NCBI RefSeq assembly: GCF_006345805.1
Contig: NC_042999.1
Coordinates: 14,012,001-14,076,000 of the forward strand
Direction: 5' to 3'
Length of the DNA: 64,000 nucleotides
From: Octopus sinensis
Taxonomy: Eukaryota
In this document: piece after piece, positions 7,960 through 63,424 of the stretch
Position numbering within the stretch: the stretch's first letter is position 1
Layout: each line of letters starts with the position of its first letter
Notes under the pieces: model-generated
Database searches by the model: none
Told to the model about the DNA's origin: nothing
What the model saw: only the letters and a program-made list of their open reading frames with translations
Position numbers and translations under genes: made by a program

Positions 7960-8510
7960 GTGTCTGTGTTTGTTCCCCCCCACCATCGCTTAACAACCAA
8001 TGGTGGTGTGTTTAGTCCCCGTAATATAGCGGTTCGGTAAAAGAGACCGATAATATAAGTACTAGGCTCGACTAAAGGCGGTGCTCCAGCATTGCCGCAG
8101 GCAAAAGACTGAAGCAAGAAAAAGAATATAAGGATATCGACATTTTCTGTCCCTTAATATATTTGTGAGGCAAAACAAAGACACGGATCAAGGCCTGAAA
8201 TTTTGGGGGAAGGGGCCAATCGATTAGATCAACCCGAGTGCGCAACTGTTATTTAATTTATCGATCCCGAAAAGGTGAAAGGTAAAGTCGACCTCAGCGG
8301 AATTTGAACTCAGAACTTAAAGACAGACGAACACGGATCAAATATTAATTTAAGTTTAAATGTCGTATGTCATATGCATGCATGCATGTATGTCTGTATG
8401 TATGTATGTATGTACGTACGTATGCATGTATGTATGTGTGTGTACGTACGTACATATATACATACATACATAGATACATACAAACAAGCATACATACATA
8501 CATACATACA

Positions 8511-9885
8511 TGATGGTCGTCCACTCGTGACCGAGGAAGACTAATGCTGACTTTCAGGAACATTGTGCGCTCTAGGACTAACTTATATTTTGCATTTGCG
8601 GCTCCATGGCGGCTAATGATCCCTGCTCTTGATAAGCATACACGACTGCAAACGTTGAAGACCAAGCTTTCCAAATTCACTACACTAGCAGTGTGCTTTC
8701 GAGCAGCACGCTTAAATTCTTCATGCAGAATACGTGCTCTTTCAAAAGTGTCGACTTCCTACTTAACCTGCTTCGTCTATCTGTGGCGATGACAGGCACG
8801 GCTCTCCCACTCAGTCTCCTGCATATCACAGGCCTTTAACGAGGACTTGACACAGTCCTTAAATTGCAGCCTTAGTTTCTGCCGAGGTCTCTTTCCATTG
8901 ACAAGTTCCCCATATACCATCTGTTTAGGGATCCTGCTATCCTTCATTCTAATAAGGTGTCCAGTTCAACGTAACCGGTGCTTGTGCACCATCGCCCCAA
9001 TACTCAAGATATCAGCTGTCCTCAGCTTCCTGTGTGTTTGGAGTTTTTAGGGTCCAGCAAACATGCAGAATGTGTCTCAGACATCTCTGATGAAAGCGTT
9101 CAAGGACCCTTACATGGCGTTTGTAAAGGGTCCGTGTCTCACATGAGTAGAGAAGCGATGTCAGTACACATGCATGGTACACAGCAATTTTTGTTTGCCT
9201 TGTGATGCCATGCTGGGGCAAACTCAAGGGACCGGAAGGAATCAGTTGCTCCTTGCAGCTTAAAAGATATTTCATCATCCAGGGAGCAAGAACGGATGAG
9301 TTTGCTGCCCAGATAGACAAATACCACTTTCAGTATTGTTCCTTCAACCAATATAGCTGGTTCCAAATATGGATTTCCTGGTGCAGGCTGGAACATTACA
9401 ACAGTCTTGTCCAGGCTAATGCTAAGTCCAAATGCCTTGAAAGAAGCAGAAATATGATTCATAAGTCTTTGCATGTCATCCACTGTATGAGTGACTAAGT
9501 TACAGTCATCTGCATAAAGGAGGTCACAAATAAGAGACTGGAAAATTTTTGAATTGGCTGCAAATCGGCGCAGATTAAAGAGGTGGCCAGAAGATCGATA
9601 CCTGACATATATTCCCAGAGAACTAACCTTGGCAAAAGTATGAGTAAAAGCAGCAGCAAAGTACAAAGAAAAGAGAGTTGGGGCAAAGATGTCACCCTGC
9701 TTGACACCATTTTTTTACAGGAATGGGTCTCGCCAACAGTGACCCAAGCCTCCATCCCATCATGAAATGATCTTATTATAGATACAAAGTGATCCAGGCA
9801 TCCAAGTATTTTCCATAGCAAGGTCCTATTCACAGTATCAAAGGCCTTGATTAAATTAATGAATACCTGGACAATATTTTCTTTT
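8511..9885 (-). mobile_element. 5'-truncated, frameshifted RTE-clade LINE (RT plus C-terminal region)
   Basis: Minus-strand fragments FINLIKAFDTVNR, DLLYADDC, FGLSISLDKT, YLGS, KIAVYHACVLTSLLYSCET, LERFHQRCLRHIL and the zinc-finger-like tail VCSRVCLSRAGIISRH; ends in a (TATG)n tract. Confidence 0.92.
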
Positions 9886-10161
9886 ATATACATACATAAA
9901 AAATATTGCGCATGTCTAGCTTAGATAAGGAGCAGGCTCGTGGCCTAATAGTTCGGTTGTTAAACTTACTATCGCAAGATCGTAGTTTCAATTCCCAGAC
10001 GGGGCGTTGTGTTCTTGAGCAAAAGACTTCACTCAACGTTGTTCCCGTCCACTCAGCTGGCAAAAACGAACAACCCCGTAACGGACTGGGAAACGCTGTG
10101 ATCTCGGTCATTTATACACCTCAGGACCTGGCCTTGTAATTCCTCGGAGTCGAGACAATTG

Positions 10162-10576
10162 GGATCTTTTCGGTTTGAACGGCAGTTTTTAAAAATAATT
10201 TCCACGTAACTAAACACTTTTAAACTTCGTATACTGGTAGAATGTGTTTATTAAACATCTTTTTTTTCTTGGCTTTATTGAGAAAATTTTATAGTTTGTA
10301 AGATATTTGTTGTTTTTTTTCTTCAATTTCTGCAATTTCAACCAATCAATGACGTCTAGTGAGTTAAAAAGCATTCTGTGCCGTATGAATATATCCCTCG
10401 TTTAAGAAACAGATTGGGTTTATTTACATTTGTGAAGAAAAAAAGAAGATACCCTTACCCCACCCCTAACCCTAAAACAGAATGAAATGCAATAGATCGA
10501 TACTAGGGTCATAATTATGGGTGGCAATTTCATATGACACCGCTAGAAAAAACTGTTGTTCAAACCGAAAAGATCC
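10162..10576. mobile_element. Second copy of the Merlin-like MITE (unit length ~415 bp)
   Basis: TIRs GGATCTTTTCGGTTTGAACGGCAGTTTTT / AAAAACTGTTGTTCAAACCGAAAAGATCC; TSD GACAATTG/GACAGTTG. Confidence 0.85.
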
Positions 10577-12600
10577 GACAGTTGTTTTACTTTTATTTGC
10601 TTAGATAACAATAAATGATAGTTAAATATTATTTCGTGAGTTTTAATGTTGCTATCTCATTCAGGAACAAGCAATTCTGCCACACTTCATAATTCATGCA
10701 GGGGAAGTAACTATAATTTCTTTCTTGGTAAAACGTTTGTTAATGTTTGCAGTTATACATTTATGAATTTTAATTAGTAAGTGTATAAATTTATGAATAA
10801 AAGTATATTTTGTAAGTGTACATTTATGCATATATAAATAAATGCAATTTTTTAAAAAATCAATGGACTACAGAAACGTAAAGGTTTAGATTTAGGTGTC
10901 ACATTTCGAAGTTTCTGCGGTTTTTCAGGGCAGTTTGGACCGTTCAGTCTATAATTGCTTCCGATGGCTGTACAAAAATCTCAGACTTATAGAGAAATCG
11001 AATGCTGTATATTAAACAAAAAATTATGAAATTTTCATTTGATAAATATTTACAGGCTTTAAATATGATTGTAGGAATTATCTCCCCTAAATATACTGAG
11101 ACTCGATCTGTCTTAGCTCTGAACTCTTTTACTTTGACTGTGGCCATGCTGGAGCACCGCCTTTAGTCGAGCAAATCGACCCCTGGACTTATTCTTTGTA
11201 AGCCTAGTACTTATTCTATTGGTCTTTATTGCCGAACCGCAACCAGCATCGGTTGTCAAGCGATATTAGGAGGACACACAAGCGTATACACACACACACA
11301 TACATATATATGACGGGCTTCTTTCAGTTTCCGCCTACCAAATCCACTCACAAGGCTTTGGTCGGCTCGAGGCTATAGTAGAAGACACTTGCTCAAGGTA
11401 CCACGCAGTGGGACTGAACCCGGAGCCATGTGGTTGGTAAGCAAGCTACTTACCACACAGCCAGAGCCCCAAGTTCAATCTGATCGAACTAAGCATTCAT
11501 GCTGTGACCATATCGTCACTTTAAGACTTTTCCAGATTACTTTAACTCATGTGTCCCGCCCTGTCACCCACTTTTTAAAGAAGGCGGAATATGATTGATC
11601 ATCAAAATCCGTTGTTTGCCAGAAGCAAAGGAGAAAAAAATGACTTACTGTAATTTTATCTCTTTACGTCCTGACTTCAAATAATGATAATGATAATAAT
11701 GAAATTATTGTATACAGTGCTCAGGTGCACCACAACTTGTCAAAAGTGCATATAAAACATATGCAGTAATGTACAAATGTCTGGAAAGCGAACAGTGTAT
11801 GAGTCAGATACATGCTTGCGTGTGTATGGAGGGGAGAAAATCAGATCCTCCAGATTCGACTACACCACCCCTCTATCTATGGTCGATAATATTCTTTTCT
11901 ATATTGGCACAAGGCCTGAAATTTTGGGCGACGGGGCTTGTAGGTTACATCGAAGACAATACTTAACTGGTACTTATTTCGTTGACCACGAAGAGATGAA
12001 AGGCATTGTCGATCTCGGCGGAATTTGAACTCAGAACGCAAAGATAGATGAAACCCGCTAAGCGTTTTGTCCTACATGCTAATGATTCTGTAAGCTTGCC
12101 ACAAGGCCAGCATATACAGGGAAGGGGCTAGTAGTTTACTTCGATCCCAGTGCCAAACTGGTACTAATTTCATCGACTCTGAAAGCAGGAAAGGCAAAGT
12201 TGACTTCGGTAGAATTTGAACTCAGAATGTAAAGACAGACGAAATACCTATTTCCTTACTACCCTCAAGGGGTTAAACACAGAGAGGACAAACAAGGACA
12301 GACAAACGGATTAAGTCGATTATATCGACCCCATTGTGTAACTGGTACTTAATTTATCGAACCCGAAAGGATGAAAGGCAAAGTAGACCTCGGCGGAATT
12401 TGAACTCAGAACGTAGCAGTAGATGAAATACCGCTAAGCATTTCGCCCGGCTTGCTAACGTTTCTGCCAGCTCACCGCCTTTTGTCTGATCAGTACCATA
12501 GCAGTGGATATACCACCCTGTTTTGTAGTGTATGGAGTCTTAATATTGACTATATTCAGTAGTGAAAGTATGTAGCTTGGTGGGGTATTTGGCTCATGGT

Positions 12601-22384: not shown

Positions 22385-24759
<2,375 letters not shown>

Positions 24760-33779: not shown

Positions 33780-34750
33780 ACGATGGCAGCGAGCTGGCAG
33801 AATCATTAGCACGCTGGGCGAAATGCATAGCCATATTTCGTCTGCTGTTACGTAAGAGTTCAAATTCCGCCAAGGTCCACTTTGCCTTTGATCCTTTCAG
33901 GGTCGATAAATTAAGTACCAGTTACACACTGGGGTCGATGTAATTGACTTAATCCGTGTGTCTGTCCTTGTTTGTCCCCTCTGCATTTTGCCCCTTGTGG
34001 GTAGTAAAGAAATAGCTATTTTGTCTGCTGTTACATTCTGAGTTCAAATTCCGCCGAGTTTGACTTAACCTTTCATCTTTTCAGGGTCGATAAATTAAGT
34101 ACCAGTTACACACTGGGGGTCGATGTAATTGACTTAATCCATTTGTCTGTCCTTGTTTGTCCCCTCTGCATTTTGCCCATTGTGGGTAGTAAAGAAATAG
34201 CTATTTCGTCTGCCGTTACGTAAGAGTTCAAATTCCGCCAAAGTCCACTTTGCCTTTCATCCTTTCAGGGTCGATAAATTAAGTACCAGTTACGCACTGG
34301 GGTCGATGTAATCGACTTAATCCATGTGTCTGTCCTTGTTTGTCCCCTCTGCATTTTGCCCCTTGTGGGTAGTAAAGAAATAGCCATTTTGTCTGCTGTT
34401 ACGTTCTGAGTTCAAATTCCGCCAAGTTTGACTTCGCCTTTCATCCTTTCGGGGTCAATAAATTAAGTACCAGTTACACACTGGGGTTGATGTAATCGAC
34501 TTAATCCATTTGTCTGTCCTTGTTTGTCCCCTCTGCATTTTACCCCTTGTGGGTAATAAAGAAATAGCTATTTTGTCTGCTGTTATGTTCTGAGTTCAAA
34601 TTCCGCCGAGGTTGACTTTGCCTTTCATCCTTTCAGGGTCGATAAATTAAGTATAAGTTACGCACTGGGGTCGATGTAATCGATTTAATCCGTGTGTCTG
34701 TCCTTGTTTGTCCCTTCTGTGTTTAGCCCCTTGTGGGTAGTAAAGAAATA
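33780..34750 (+). mobile_element. Pentameric family C SINE: tRNA head plus five ~183-bp units
   Basis: Head GAGCTGGCAGAATCATTAGC with B-box GAGTTCAAATTCC; core GCCTTTCATCCTTTCGGGGTCGATAAATTAAGTACCAG; 18-bp TSD GGTTTAGTCCAGTGGTTC at 33762 and 34751. Confidence 0.9.
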
Positions 34751-35398
34751 GGTTTAGTCCAGTGGTTCCCAAACATTTTCGGGTTGCCACCCCATCACAC
34801 CCAGGTCATATTTCTATCACCCCTACCTCACTCACCATCATAAACATAGACGACTTTCTGCAGCAAATTTAACTGTTTACTCTTTACTTTTTTATTCTTT
34901 TATTTGTTTCAGTCATTTGACTGTGGCCATGCTGGAGTACCACCTTTAGTTGAACAAATCGCCCTCAGGACTTATTCTTTGTAAGCCTAGTACTTATTCT
35001 ATCAGTCTCTTTTGCCGAGCTGCTAAGTTACAGAGACATAAACAAACCAACATCAGTTGTCAAGCAATGATGGGGGTACAAACACACACACACACACACA
35101 CATACACACACACACATACACACATATATGATGGGCTTCTTTCAGTTTCCGTCTACCAAATCCACTTGCAAGGCTTTGGTCGGCCAAAGGTTATAGTAGA
35201 AGACACTTACCCAAGGTGCCATACAGTGAGACTGAACCGGGAACCATGCGGTTAGAAAATAAGCTACTTACCACACAAAGGCTGCTAAGCATTTGTTCAG
35301 AAAATCTAATGATTCTGCAAACTCACTACCTTAATAATAATAATGGTTCCAATTTAAGCTCAAGACCAGAAATTTCAGGGAAGTGGGTAAGATGACTA

Positions 35399-36241
35399 CT
35401 GTATTTTAACATGTATAAGAAACCCCTTTTTGTCAAAAATTAGGTTAAGCAAATATGGGAGTTTCTTATACATAAATAATATTATCACGTGATCACGTGA
35501 CCGACCAGACCATCAGATGTTGCTACACATCACTGGTCACAATGCGTTTGCATTGTTTTAGCCTTCAAACGACGCCACCTCGCTGGCTAAGCAAGCAGGC
35601 CAAGAGAAGAAAATGAGAAAGAGTGGTGAAAGAGTACAGCAGGGATCACCACCCCCTGCCGGAGCCTCATGGACCTTTTTAGGTGTTTTCGCTCAATAAA
35701 CACACACAACGCCCAGTCTGGGAATCGAAACCGCGATCCTACGACTGCCAGTCCACTGCCCTAACCACTGGGCCATTGCGCCTCCACAAATAGTATTATA
35801 GATATTAATAAATTACTTAATTCCTTGAACCTAATATCACCATGATTTCTAACATCGTAAGCCTCAGGCCGAAACCCATTGGGTTGCAATGGACAAGTTG
35901 CTATCCGTTTGCCAAGCAACGGCATTTGCAGAAAGCAGCCATCATGAACGATGATTATCTGCCAAACAGTTCTTACTGAGACTGTTGAATCTGTATTTTT
36001 GTATTAACGCAAAGGTCCTATATTGTATTTAAAATTATGAGCAAACACGCAAGGGAAAACATTAACACTTTTTAAAACCCAGGCTGCATACGGAGGTCAT
36101 ACAACCTATCAGAGACAGCAAACATGCTCAATGGCCATATATGGCAATACAGCTCACACTGTAACCTTTTTTCTGAATTTTAAGCCCCAAAATTAGGGGG
36201 TTCCTTATACACAAGGGTTTCTTATACATTTTAAAATATAG
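35399..36241. mobile_element. Tc/pogo-like MITE with a nested SINE (~35484-35790, minus)
   Basis: TA-CTGTATTTTAACATGTATAAGAAACCC / GGGTTTCTTATACATTTTAAAATATAG-TA; a related fragment lies at ~62373-62500. Confidence 0.75.
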
Positions 36242-41514: not shown

Positions 41515-41696
41515 GTACATTATGTACATTTTATTTACATTATTTACATTTGACGGATATTTGTCCTGATCTTGCTTGTTGTTAACACAGTGGTTCGACT
41601 GATATACCCTCTAGCCTTTATCAGGTGCATATGGCATACTGGTTAAGAGTATGGGCTACTAAGCCCAAGATTCTGAGTTTGTTTCCTGGCAGTGAT

Positions 41697-41730
<34 letters not shown>
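41515..41730. mobile_element. Rearranged copy of the tRNA-head/hammerhead element: decayed hammerhead on minus, tRNA head on plus
   Basis: 41515-41626 matches 62065-62167; 41627-41700 is the reverse complement of 62275-62348 and is followed by (AAT)n. Confidence 0.75.
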
Positions 41731-41736
<6 letters not shown>

Positions 41737-41763
41737 TAATAATAATACTAATAATAATAATGA

Positions 41764-41807
<44 letters not shown>

Positions 41808-42250
41808 ATAATAATAATAATAATAATAATAAAATAATAATAATAATAAAGTTGCTGAGACCCCCTTCGGTCATTACTGACCAAAGGATTGCACCTAGAA
41901 AGTTACCTTCCCAGGCACAAGTCTGGGCAAGGTTGTTTATGGAAGACCAGCAGTCACCCATGCATACCGACCTACCCTCTCCACGCTACCAGTGTTATCC
42001 AAGGGAAAGGCAAAGGGGCCGATACAGCTTGGCACCTGTGATGTCGCAACTCATTTCTACAATTGAGTGAAATGGAGCAATGTGAAATAAAGTGTCTTGC
42101 TCAAAAACACAACACACAGCCCAGTCCGAGATTCGAACTCACAACTTCATGATTGCAAGCTTGATGATCTAGCTACTGAGCCATGCACCTTAATAATAAT
42201 AATAATAATAATAATAACAATAATAATAATAATAATAACAATATAATAAT

Positions 42251-57958: not shown

Positions 57959-58372
57959 GGTGGCAAGCTGGCAGAATCGTTAGCACGCCGGTCGAAATGC
58001 TTAGCGGTATTTCATCTGCTGTTACATTCTGAGTTCAAATTCCGCCGAGATTGACTTTGCCTTTCATCCTTTTGGGGTCAATAAATTAATTACCAGTTAC
58101 GCACTGGAGTCGATATAATCGACTTAATCCGTTTGTCTGTCCTTGTTTGTCCCCTCTGTGTTTAGCCCCTTGTGGGTAGTAAAGAAATAGGTATTTCGTC
58201 TGCTGCTACGTTCTGAGTTCAAATTCCGCCGAGGTTGAATTTGCCTTTCATCCTTTCAGGGTTGATTAAATAAGTACCAGTTACGCACTGAGGTCGATAT
58301 AATTGACATAATCCGTTTGTCTGTCCTTGTTTATCCTCTCTGTGTTTAGCCCCTCATGGGTAGTAAAGAAAT
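57959..58372 (+). mobile_element. Dimeric family C SINE
   Basis: Head plus two units; flanking direct repeat AGGTATCAGTTCTT. Confidence 0.85.
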
Positions 58373-58490
58373 AGGTATCAGTTCTTGATAGAGCTGTAAG
58401 GGTGCTGTCATGATATATAGTGCTCTTGGATATCTAAATCTAGCAGAGCCCATTCTGCATCCAGTCTGGCCAAGACAGGTGTCTTCAAGA

Positions 58491-60270: not shown

Positions 60271-60879
60271 TATATATTTATATTGTGAAATTTGATTTAA
60301 TACTAAATTGAATTTTCCCCTGTAAGTTTGGAGTTGTACTCCCTAATATATATATATATATGTCAAGTACATCAACATCAAAATAAATATCAAATGGAAA
60401 TTGTAGTTGTGATACCTGGGCCGGTGGCACATAAAAAGCACCATCCGAATGTGGCCAATACAGCGCCGCCTTGACTGGCTTCTGTGCTGGTGGCAAGTAA
60501 AAAGCACCCACTAGACTCATGGAGTGGTTGGCATAGGAAGGGCATCCAGCTGTAGAAACACTGCCAGATCAGACTGGAGCCTGGTGCGGCCTCCTGGCTT
60601 CCCAAACCCTGGTTGAACCATCCAACCCGTGCTAGCATGGAAAACGGACATTAAACGATGATGATGATTAGGGAGTATAACTCCAAACTTACAGGGAAAA
60701 ATTCAGTTTGGGGTACGCAAGAGCATGCTCCCCGTAGAAAATTCAACTCCCAAAAAGCCTCATGATGGCAAAGGAGAATGGGCAACAACCAGCCCAACAG
60801 TTGGGGTGGGAGGCACCTGCCTACTTTGGTTGCTATGGCATTGAGGTGGATCTGGCCACCCCCATTAACGGGGACAAAA

Positions 60880-61620
60880 CCCAAATCAGGAGAAGATTTG
60901 ATTTGGTTTTTCTCAAACGAGAAAAACTTCGACCAAGATCAAAAAGTTAACAAAAGAAAGGACAGATGGTTATGTGTAGACCCTTCTGAAGTTCCAAGAG
61001 TTATGCTTACAAAATTTCCTGCTACTGTCATACTTTTAGTGGTTGTCAATAATGAAGGACATGTAATGTCTCCTTACGTCTTTCCACAAGGCCTTAGAGT
61101 TAACTCAGCCGCCTACATTGAGGTCCTGGAAATAATTCTTAAGCCCTGGATAGACAGTGTATGCAATGGAAGGCCATATGTGTTTCAGTAAGACTCTGCA
61201 CTGTAAAACATGGCTCTAATAACACAGGAATGGATGGCTGAAAATTTTCATGATCACATAACCCTTAACATTTGGTCTCCTAATTCCCCAGATCTCAATC
61301 CATTGGACTATTACAAGTGGAGCATTGAGAGAGAGAGAGGTCAATGAACATGCCCATAATACCAAAGATTCTTTGAAAGCTGCCATAGTCAGAGTAATGT
61401 CCAAAATGGACCAAGACCACTTGATTTGAGCATGTAGAGGATTTAGATCTCATATAGAAGCAGTTGTTGAAGCTGAAGGTGGCTTTATTGAATAACGTTA
61501 TAGAAAAGAAGGTTTATTTTTATCCTCATAGCATTTTTTGAAAAATAAAGTTATTGTCTGTTATTATACATCTGTTTTTTTATAAACATAAATCTCTCCT
61601 CAAATATCTTACGCACCCTG
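60880..61620 (+). mobile_element. DD37D (maT-type) transposase 3' half with its terminal repeat
   Basis: WFFSNEKNFDQDQKVN..TKFPATV..YIEVLEIILKPW..YVFQ*DSA..WSPNSPDLNPLDY; ends ACGCACCCTG-TA. Confidence 0.85.
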
Positions 61621-61808: not shown

Positions 61809-62034
61809 TGAGGATGGTCTGAAAGGTTTGTTGCCTGACCATGATGCTAGCTAACACTAGAGCTGTGAGTGCATGCATTCATTTCAAATCTCTTTATTTA
61901 TAACTGAATTGTTTCTTTCCAGGAAACTGACATCTGACTTTTCAAAGAAGACTTCGAAAGTAACTAGTAGTGACTTCTCTTGAAAGTTCGATAAAATTAC
62001 CACATGTTAACATGTATAAAAAACTCCTTTTTAA

Positions 62035-62217
62035 TACAGTTCTATATTTAGGAGATAAGGAATTATATACATTATTTACATTATTTTCATTTGACAGATA
62101 TTTACCCTCATCTTGTTTGTTGTTAACACAACGTTTTGGCTGATACACCCTCCAGCCTTCATCAGGTGTCTTGGGGAAATTTCGAACCTGGGTTCTCATT
62201 CCTAAGGTATTTTTCAA

Positions 62218-62279
<62 letters not shown>

Positions 62280-62370
62280 TCACTGCTTGGAATCGAACTT
62301 GGAATCTTGGGGTTAGTAGACCGTGCTCTTAAACACTATGCCATATGCGCATGGGCATATGGCGTAGTTG
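62035..62370 (-). mobile_element. Composite element: tRNA-like head, (AAT)n, minimal hammerhead motif, AT-rich tail
   Basis: Minus strand GCATATGGCATAGTGTTTAAGAGC..CTACTAA..AGTTCGATTCC, then (AAT)n, then GACAC-CTGATGA-A-GGCTG..CAGCC-AAAAC-GTT-GTGTT. Confidence 0.75.
62125..62170 (-). ncRNA. Minimal type-I hammerhead motif, G12 mutated to A in this copy
   Basis: 5-bp helix I (GACAC/GTGTT), 5-bp helix II (GGCTG/CAGCC), palindromic AACGTT helix III; the copy at ~41595 retains CGAA. Confidence 0.7.
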
Positions 62371-62502
62371 TCAAAAATTAGGTTAAAAAAATATGGGAGT
62401 TTCTTATAAATTGATTGTATTATAATCCCTTACAAAACCTTTTTATCAAATTTTAAGCCCTGAATATTAAGGGGTTCCTTATACACATTAAAATATGGTA
62501 CT

Positions 62503-62670
62503 TGGCATCGTGGTGTTAGCAAGTACCTGCAGGAAAAGGCTTTAGCCTCCAACGACATTCATGTTGAAATGGTTGCTACATTAGGAGATGACTCTCCAGT
62601 TTTATCAGCAGCGCATAAGTGAGCAGCTGAATTTAGGATGGCAAGGGAGAATGTTAAAGACAACCCAAAG
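62503..62670 (+). pseudogene. mariner transposase N-terminal fragment (probable 5' TIR at ~61807)
   Basis: HRGVSKYLQEK..DIHVEMVATLGDDSP..HK*AAEFRMARENVKDNP resembles the mariner HTH. Confidence 0.7.
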
Positions 62671-63424
62671 CTAACCCGAACAAGACTTGAACTCCAGAAT
62701 GTAATGAATCAGAATATATTTATTGCAAGGCAATTAATGTTTCTGCCGATCCGCCTCCGTCTGCTTATCATATGAAAGAATTATCATTTGAATAATTTAA
62801 TAGGATTGTGTTTGATGGTGTTGCTACTACTTTATGGTCGATTGGATTAAATACTGAAGTGGATTAGCTATCAGCCGGTGAGTTAATTTCATCAACACTT
62901 GGTACTACATAGTTTGTTATGTTGTTGAATCACTAAGATGGCTGACGTGATGACAGACACTTGATCTATGAACTAAACCTGATAGAAATAGCAGCGAACT
63001 CCTCCTCAATTTATACCAGTGTACTGTGATAGAAAAGACAGAAGGACATTGGATCATATGGTCGTAGGAAGACGGTCATCATCATCGTTTAACGTCCGCT
63101 TTCCATGTTAGCATGGGTTGGACACGATTTGACTGAGGACTGGCGAACTAAATGGCTGTACCAGGTTCCAATCTTGATCTGGCAGAGTTTCTACAACTGG
63201 ATGCCCTTCCTAACACCAACCACTCCGAGAGTGTAGTGGGTGCTTTTATGTGCCACCGGCAGGGGGCCAGTCAAGTGGTACTGGCAATGACCTTGCTCGA
63301 ATCTTTTACACATGCCACTGAGTGAGGTCGTCAAGATAAAAAAGAATTGATGGTTGTGGCTGGAATGTTTTAAATCGAAGCTCACCACCTTAACAACAAC
63401 AATATTTTGGAAAATGAACATATT

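Follow-up and report, generated by a model that had tools for sequence, protein, structure and literature searches.

A tRNA-headed hammerhead repeat of Octopus sinensis as the pLTR of a Penelope/Poseidon-type element with a candidate RNA polymerase III promoter

On the minus strand of a 64-kb window of Octopus sinensis DNA (the whole stretch that was analysed), a tRNA-like head, an (AAT)n tract and a type-I hammerhead follow one another, which raises the question of what kind of element holds these parts and whether the head starts its RNA. A first-pass annotation had described this layout, and all parts were found where it had placed them, with the hammerhead at 62125-62170. It had also proposed a separate non-autonomous family, a Pol III-driven and possibly circularising retrozyme mobilised by a Penelope reverse transcriptase (RT), but the unit is instead the pseudo-LTR (pLTR) of an autonomous element. 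In our reading, to which we give a probability of about 0.6, the window copy is the damaged pLTR of an autonomous Penelope/Poseidon-type element, inserted without the remainder of the element, and its template was probably an RNA that started at the head. The likely reason for this start is that the head probably serves as an internal promoter for RNA polymerase III (Pol III).

The limits of the insertion (Table 1) were set from an empty paralogous site at 35403-35485, where both flanks of the copy meet (87% over 84 nt). A target duplication was not clear and would be 1-2 A at most. The end of the spacer and the start of the head pair as the family hairpin TGCCC-AC-GGGCA (62351..62356 side, minus strand). 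The palindrome at 62335-62368, which had been reported as a mirror copy of the head, was confirmed. Its added inverted part is limited to 62357-62368, and the remaining letters belong to the hairpin and head of the element itself. The window hammerhead has stem I GACAC/GTGTT, core CTGATGA, stem II GGCTG/CAGCC and a helix III without a loop, with a predicted cut between 62130 and 62129 (GUU). It carries G12A (CAAAACGTT here versus CGAAACGTT in the family) and is therefore predicted to be dead; the core at 41519-41627 is mutated too, so the earlier statement that both window hammerheads have core mutations stands. The ORF start in the window was aligned by tblastn with the 838-aa family ORF as reference. 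Taken as a whole, the locus is very probably a pLTR fragment that a Penelope/Poseidon-type element left behind and that is now dead.

Table 1 Features of the window copy and of related pieces in the 64-kb window
Feature	Position	Strand	Remark
Whole insertion, pLTR-only Penelope/Poseidon-type copy, 336 bp	62033..62368	-	89-95% identity to family majority model
12-nt foldback, inverted copy of head start	62357..62368	+	Junction type recurs in family
End (6 nt) of the spacer that separates ORF stop and head	62351..62356	-	Predicted Pol III start close by
tRNA-like head, without full cloverleaf	62276..62350	-	A-box and B-box motifs
A-box-like TGGCATAGTGT	62343-62333	-	Motif
Loop CTACTAA	62319-62313	-	Motif
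B-box AGTTCGATTCC	62299-62289	-	Motif
(AAT)19 tract	62275-62219	-	Length differs between copies
ORF start, first 56 codons, ATG at 62199, spans hammerhead	62033..62199	-	tblastn 89% to residues 1-56
Minimal type-I hammerhead	62125..62170 (62170-62125)	-	Stem/core layout
Optional pLTR 'tail'	62033..62064	-	Copy stops at distal 3'-end cluster, +167 from ATG
Second insertion, hammerhead arm (-) head-to-head with head + (AAT)n arm (+)	41519..41849	.	Core mutated
Inverted pair of tail fragments	23228..23342	.	Head and hammerhead core both absent
Local duplicate of the 23228-23342 fragment pair	24344..24459	.	Flanks shared; inverted tail pieces only

The related pieces listed by the first-pass annotation all exist in inverted or head-to-head arrangement, but those at 23228-23342 and 24344-24459 turned out to be tails. 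The second insertion joins a hammerhead part (41519-41627, minus strand) to a head (41627-41711, plus strand), and a different tRNA-headed, SINE-like repeat lies beside it between two (AAT)n tracts (41850-42190, minus strand). The window is rich in repeats, with tandem arrays of a related 169-184-bp unit at 320-1928, 33834-34751 and 58006-58378. Decayed frames on either side of the copy (60766-61513 and 62464-62775, both plus strand) are, judging by motifs, presumably Tc1/mariner transposase pieces.

Head, (AAT)n, minimal hammerhead and tail form the pLTR of an autonomous Penelope/Poseidon-type element. Of 30 loci picked by the end of its ORF (the putative endonuclease part; four near-identical duplicates and the query included), 27 have the head 29 nt past the stop codon; the hammerhead part is reached in 26. 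Several loci picked by the head extend upstream of it into the ORF. At the other side the pLTR reads into the ORF start in L164, L181 and L184. When loci were picked by that start, 28 of 30 showed the same join, five of the 30 being duplicates or the query's own locus. L164 has the hammerhead segment at both element ends, with the pLTR overlapping the ORF start. A majority model of ORF-bearing loci (duplicates removed, depth at least 28) is 2652 nt long and contains a single 838-aa frame, whose ATG sits in the pLTR 30 nt before the hammerhead and which reads through it. An autonomous element with the same ends, which the first-pass annotation had proposed to look for, was thus found, with an 838-codon RT ORF between pLTRs, and the suspected link of the minimal hammerhead to Penelope is borne out by the pLTR of this RT-bearing element.

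The RT domain was recognised as Pfam RVT_1 (E 1.5e-9), and homologues with RVT_1 are 50-67% identical. In the C-terminal domain C111, C113, H149, H156, Y117 and R175 are invariant in 19 sequences, and the domain carries a VYSIPC..YKGET motif, which we take to be an endonuclease motif. Neither Pfam, PDB sequences nor a fold search gave a match for this domain (structure model pLDDT 57), so its assignment rests on motifs, and the sequence had no match in Atlas. The family ORF ends in a putative GIY-YIG-type endonuclease with CCHH residues; the CCHH motif is given, in the accessible parts of the literature, as a mark of the C-terminal GIY-YIG endonuclease in EN+ Penelope-like elements (PLEs). The family is probably an EN+ PLE of the Penelope/Poseidon clade, to judge by its ORF, pLTR, tail and inverted-partner features. 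A linker motif is absent from family alignment A1, in line with the clade's description, whereas a CxxxxCxxC linker is present in a control PLE family. An inverted upstream arm was seen at 47 of 90 loci, an arrangement that available excerpts describe as usual for PLEs, and the 3' ends of 95 arms lie at +117..+143 (35) or +156..+174 (54), with one between and five outside. In eight loci (L343, L346, L347, L350, L352, L355, L362 and L363) a 3' end or deletion break was found about 250-450 nt past the tail, within the ORF, which suggests additional internal priming or deletion sites.

The control family is a second, younger PLE family (L129:7387-7929 on the minus strand, L401-L430). Its copies are 96-98% identical, its linker resembles a Zn-finger, and its ORF is followed by a long stretch rich in TG/TA; the hammerhead motif was not found in the part examined. 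Metagenome contigs yielded no relatives with DNA context, so the observations on the head come from this genome. Contigs of three other organisms gave 0-1 short pieces each, which speaks neither for nor against the head elsewhere.

The intact 34-nt hammerhead core has 1551 exact matches in the 2.72 Gb of genome searched and its reversed control none, so the core is not a product of chance. All core letters are the majority letters in the family, in keeping with the first-pass annotation. Of 167 copies picked without use of the core, 40 retain H17 and every one of the 13 letters of core and helix III. Decay of the core is mostly at CpG, and the sole frequent non-CpG variant (23%) lies at the free position N7. 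Because N7 falls on the third base of an Asp/Glu codon, constraint on the coding sequence also explains it. A look for stem covariation found no frequent variant in either helix of this single young family. Rfam gave no tRNA or hammerhead match in the window or in an intact-core copy, and ARAGORN found no tRNA in the 64-kb window. In folding, neither the head nor the monomer hammerhead was better than shuffles (z between -0.55 and +0.60); monomers preferred a non-hammerhead fold and heads formed no cloverleaf. Given these negative results, both calls rest on motif and helix layout.

The 24-nt head pattern matched 439 times genome-wide. Three tRNA-headed Penelope insertions in 40 evenly spaced 10-kb stretches would correspond to roughly 20,000 per genome, within wide limits. 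The linkage of head and hammerhead claimed for the window copy holds family-wide, as 25 of 30 head-picked loci have a hammerhead part downstream (the query counted, and one with 25 nt only). Of the five remaining loci, three or more (L041, L046, L060) have a different repeat after the AAT tract. AAT or AAC comes after 233 of 236 head matches. The (AAT)n tract is of variable length across family copies and a frequent target of other insertions. LINE-like coding sequence, by its motifs presumably Dong/R4-like, lies inside the tract in L041, L046, L060, L086 and L090. In L385, four pLTR arms alternate in orientation and the same foldback junction occurs twice.

Compared with host tRNA genes (Arg, Phe, Lys, Ala, Thr and Cys only), the head scored 60-61 against tRNA-Arg/Ala, with a shuffled maximum of 40 for these six isotypes. 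Its identity to ordinary tRNA-SINE heads in the genome is at most 74% over 65 nt. The head thus looks tRNA-related but degenerate, and may be a captured SINE head. In the family majority both A-box and B-box agree with the type-2 consensus, and the Pol III promoter of the first-pass annotation is plausible. Seven tRNA-Cys genes are clustered within 3 kb at L207.

The 5' ends of copies also point to the head. We followed 95 arms chosen by the hammerhead core alone: 20 stop before the AAT tract and 22 within it, one jumps to the ORF, and the remaining 52 extend at least as far as the head. Twenty of these 52 end in the head, 27 at -17..+7, and five continue, giving break rates per 100 nt at risk of 0.9 inside the head, 6.6 at -17..+7 and 0.13 beyond (at least three internal-deletion arms reaching the ORF side were excluded from the rates). 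A script rule classed 17 of the 27 boundary ends as non-foldback, of which 3-4 look foldback-derived by eye. Only four copies combine head, hammerhead and ORF start; three begin at the head and one is tandem, so the head is the apparent starting point also of RNAs that enter the ORF. Among 30 copies exact for -6..+18, 16 are foldbacks, six have other ends there and eight continue (three for less than 20 nt). Since the boundary coincides with the native hairpin, frequent foldback at this site on longer RNAs accounts for much of the 5' pile-up.

On the sense strand of the 2652-nt model TTTT is absent, where 3.0 were expected from synonymous-codon shuffles (P0 0.019); two other shuffles gave P 0.017 and 0.014. 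The frequency of TTT is normal (14 versus 15 expected), and the control PLE family, which is Neptune-like, has seven TTTT in 2330 nt versus 3.9 expected. This result is one test with P about 0.02 and a single control family from another clade. In RNA-seq data (three runs of one study, with fragmented cDNA; the species label is that of some sequencing runs in which the family was detected and may differ from that of the genome), 8,400-11,900 reads per run fell on a full-length copy, equally in both orientations and deepest on the pLTR. The reads track the genomic copy profile and 70-75% extend into unrelated sequence. Read starts and ends formed no pile-up at the head or the cut site in the three runs, nor was there a discrete transcript; the available text on PAc (PMC11167929) likewise describes no read-end pile-up at the hammerhead site. 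This pattern fits read-through of many dispersed copies and is neutral on a short Pol III RNA.

The head may also be passive. The element would be the same, but the 3' UTR of a master copy would have received a SINE head, or else a tRNA pseudogene, together with an AAT tail, transcription would be by Pol II or read-through, and the pile-up would come only from cDNA foldback at the hairpin. The foldback is indeed the commonest boundary junction (16 of 30), the head shares up to 74% of 65 nt with ordinary tRNA-SINE heads, and the RNA reads resemble read-through. No PLE with a promoter derived from a tRNA or used by Pol III was found in the main text of openly accessible articles; PLE pLTR promoters are described without mention of Pol III in the accessible portions, and none is mentioned in those of PMC8557442, PMC4758252, PMC8967140 and PMC13282606. 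The TE library of the last, as far as its available text goes, may contain this family under some other name. We nevertheless regard a passive head as rather unlikely, because non-foldback ends crowd the boundary too (about 14-17 of 27), three of the four copies running into the ORF begin at the head, TTTT is absent over 2.65 kb and the A- and B-boxes are intact in the majority.

A separate non-autonomous Pol III element, SINE-like or a non-LTR retrozyme, that cleaves itself, circularises and borrows a Penelope RT would account for the excess of short copies starting at the head over ORF-linked ones among the core-picked arms (27 versus 5); as each short copy has its own boxes, some could re-amplify. 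Animal retrozymes are also proposed, in the accessible literature, to stem from PLE pLTRs, and a few direct hammerhead pairs exist (L263, L308, L310). However, a second hammerhead on the same strand within 1.4 kb is lacking at 87 of 90 loci, and of the three that have one, L310 is a duplication including its flank and L263 a second copy joined after the tail. Exact tail-to-head junctions, as retrozyme monomers would leave, numbered 0 genome-wide in a search that demanded two exact motifs within 30 nt and that rare cases can escape; no head-to-tail joint was seen among the RNA joints listed, which come from libraries ill suited to detecting circles. Over 217 positions no allele was private to the short copies (109 head-starting versus 55 ORF-linked copies); the best difference had an uncorrected P of 0.004, with the changes commoner in ORF-linked copies, and a linked N7=A / +64=A variant was found in both classes. 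Divergence is alike (0.948 short, 0.937 ORF-linked). Each autonomous subfamily seems to have shed its own short copies as by-products, and a separate lineage is improbable. Direct hammerhead or tail-to-AAT joins in L263, L164 and L310 are natural same-strand dimers. A Penelope end could also have landed by chance in the AAT tail of a tRNA-SINE at this locus, as (AAT)n tracts are targets of insertions, but this was rejected as barely credible: head, tract and hammerhead share their order in most copies, always behind the same ORF.

In the favoured reading of a pLTR-only copy made from a head-started RNA, Pol III would start about 6 nt ahead of the tRNA +1. By analogy with PAc, as given in the accessible part of PMC11167929, the element protein would bind pLTR RNA, nick AT-rich DNA and begin reverse transcription from either of two internal positions of the RNA. 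Short copies such as the one in the window would come from priming at the pLTR nearest the RNA 5' end, and copies bearing the ORF from priming at the far pLTR. At the TGCCC-AC-GGGCA hairpin the cDNA end would often fold back. Cutting by the hammerhead would require a dimer or help from protein, and G12A would abolish it in the window copy. A further step, which we put forward tentatively, is that the whole coding PLE is transcribed end to end by Pol III from a captured tRNA-derived pLTR promoter, as an uncapped RNA of about 2.9 kb that is selected to be free of TTTT and translated without a cap, with SINE-like short copies arising from the element's own 5' end.

Should the head prove active in Pol III transcription, a coding retrotransposon would stand under a promoter type usual for non-coding parasites, which would raise the testable question of how an uncapped Pol III RNA gets translated. 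The PLE cycle, of which little is understood, would gain a defined 5' end for its RNA, and hammerhead repeats of the SINE-like or Sm-alpha-like kind could be traced to PLE ends by such a route. With a passive head, the locus would be an ordinary one among roughly 20,000 dead Penelope fragments.

The closest comparison is with PAc of Anolis carolinensis. In the available text of PMC11167929, PAc likewise has a single ORF with RT and C-terminal endonuclease (the latter recognised by motifs in our family), a pLTR overlapping the ORF start with the hammerhead in the start-codon region, two 3' ends about 30-40 nt apart that define the tail, AT-rich targets and inverted 5'-truncated partners. Reverse transcription of PAc from two internal sites makes the 'tail', and its ORF starts in the hammerhead at stem II, whereas the ATG here is about 30 nt upstream of the hammerhead. 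The pLTR described here has a tRNA-like head with A- and B-boxes and an (AAT)n tract, features that the accessible text does not mention for PAc, and 5' ends crowd at the head. It is this tRNA-like head in the pLTR that sets the family apart. The metazoan pLTR hammerheads in the available part of PMC4209133 are also of type I, with a 5-bp helix I, an unpaired A before helix II, G10.1-C11.1 and a palindromic ACGU in place of helix III, and their genomic copies are mostly single and derived from truncated PLEs. Helix II is 5-6 bp in our family versus 7-8 bp in theirs, and our predicted cut triplet is GUU.

Schistosoma Sm-alpha, in the accessible portion of PMC6765202, similarly is a short repeat with a Pol III-type promoter followed by a hammerhead, but it is non-coding and often tandem, whereas the unit here is the end repeat of a coding element and mostly single or head-to-head. 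Non-LTR retrozymes share a type I hammerhead, a unit of 170-400 nt and a proposed origin from PLE pLTRs in the available parts of PMC7229834 and bioRxiv 10.64898/2026.07.22.740005; they are defined by head-to-tail hammerhead tandems and circular RNA, and such tandems were not found here. Cassandra, Helenus and Ajax also contain small-RNA-derived sequence within a retrotransposon terminal repeat, but are non-autonomous LTR elements in the accessible text of PMC10886601, unlike the protein-coding PLE described here. With tRNA-derived SINEs the family shares a tRNA-related head with A and B boxes, although here the head belongs to an autonomous element, without a separate non-autonomous lineage.
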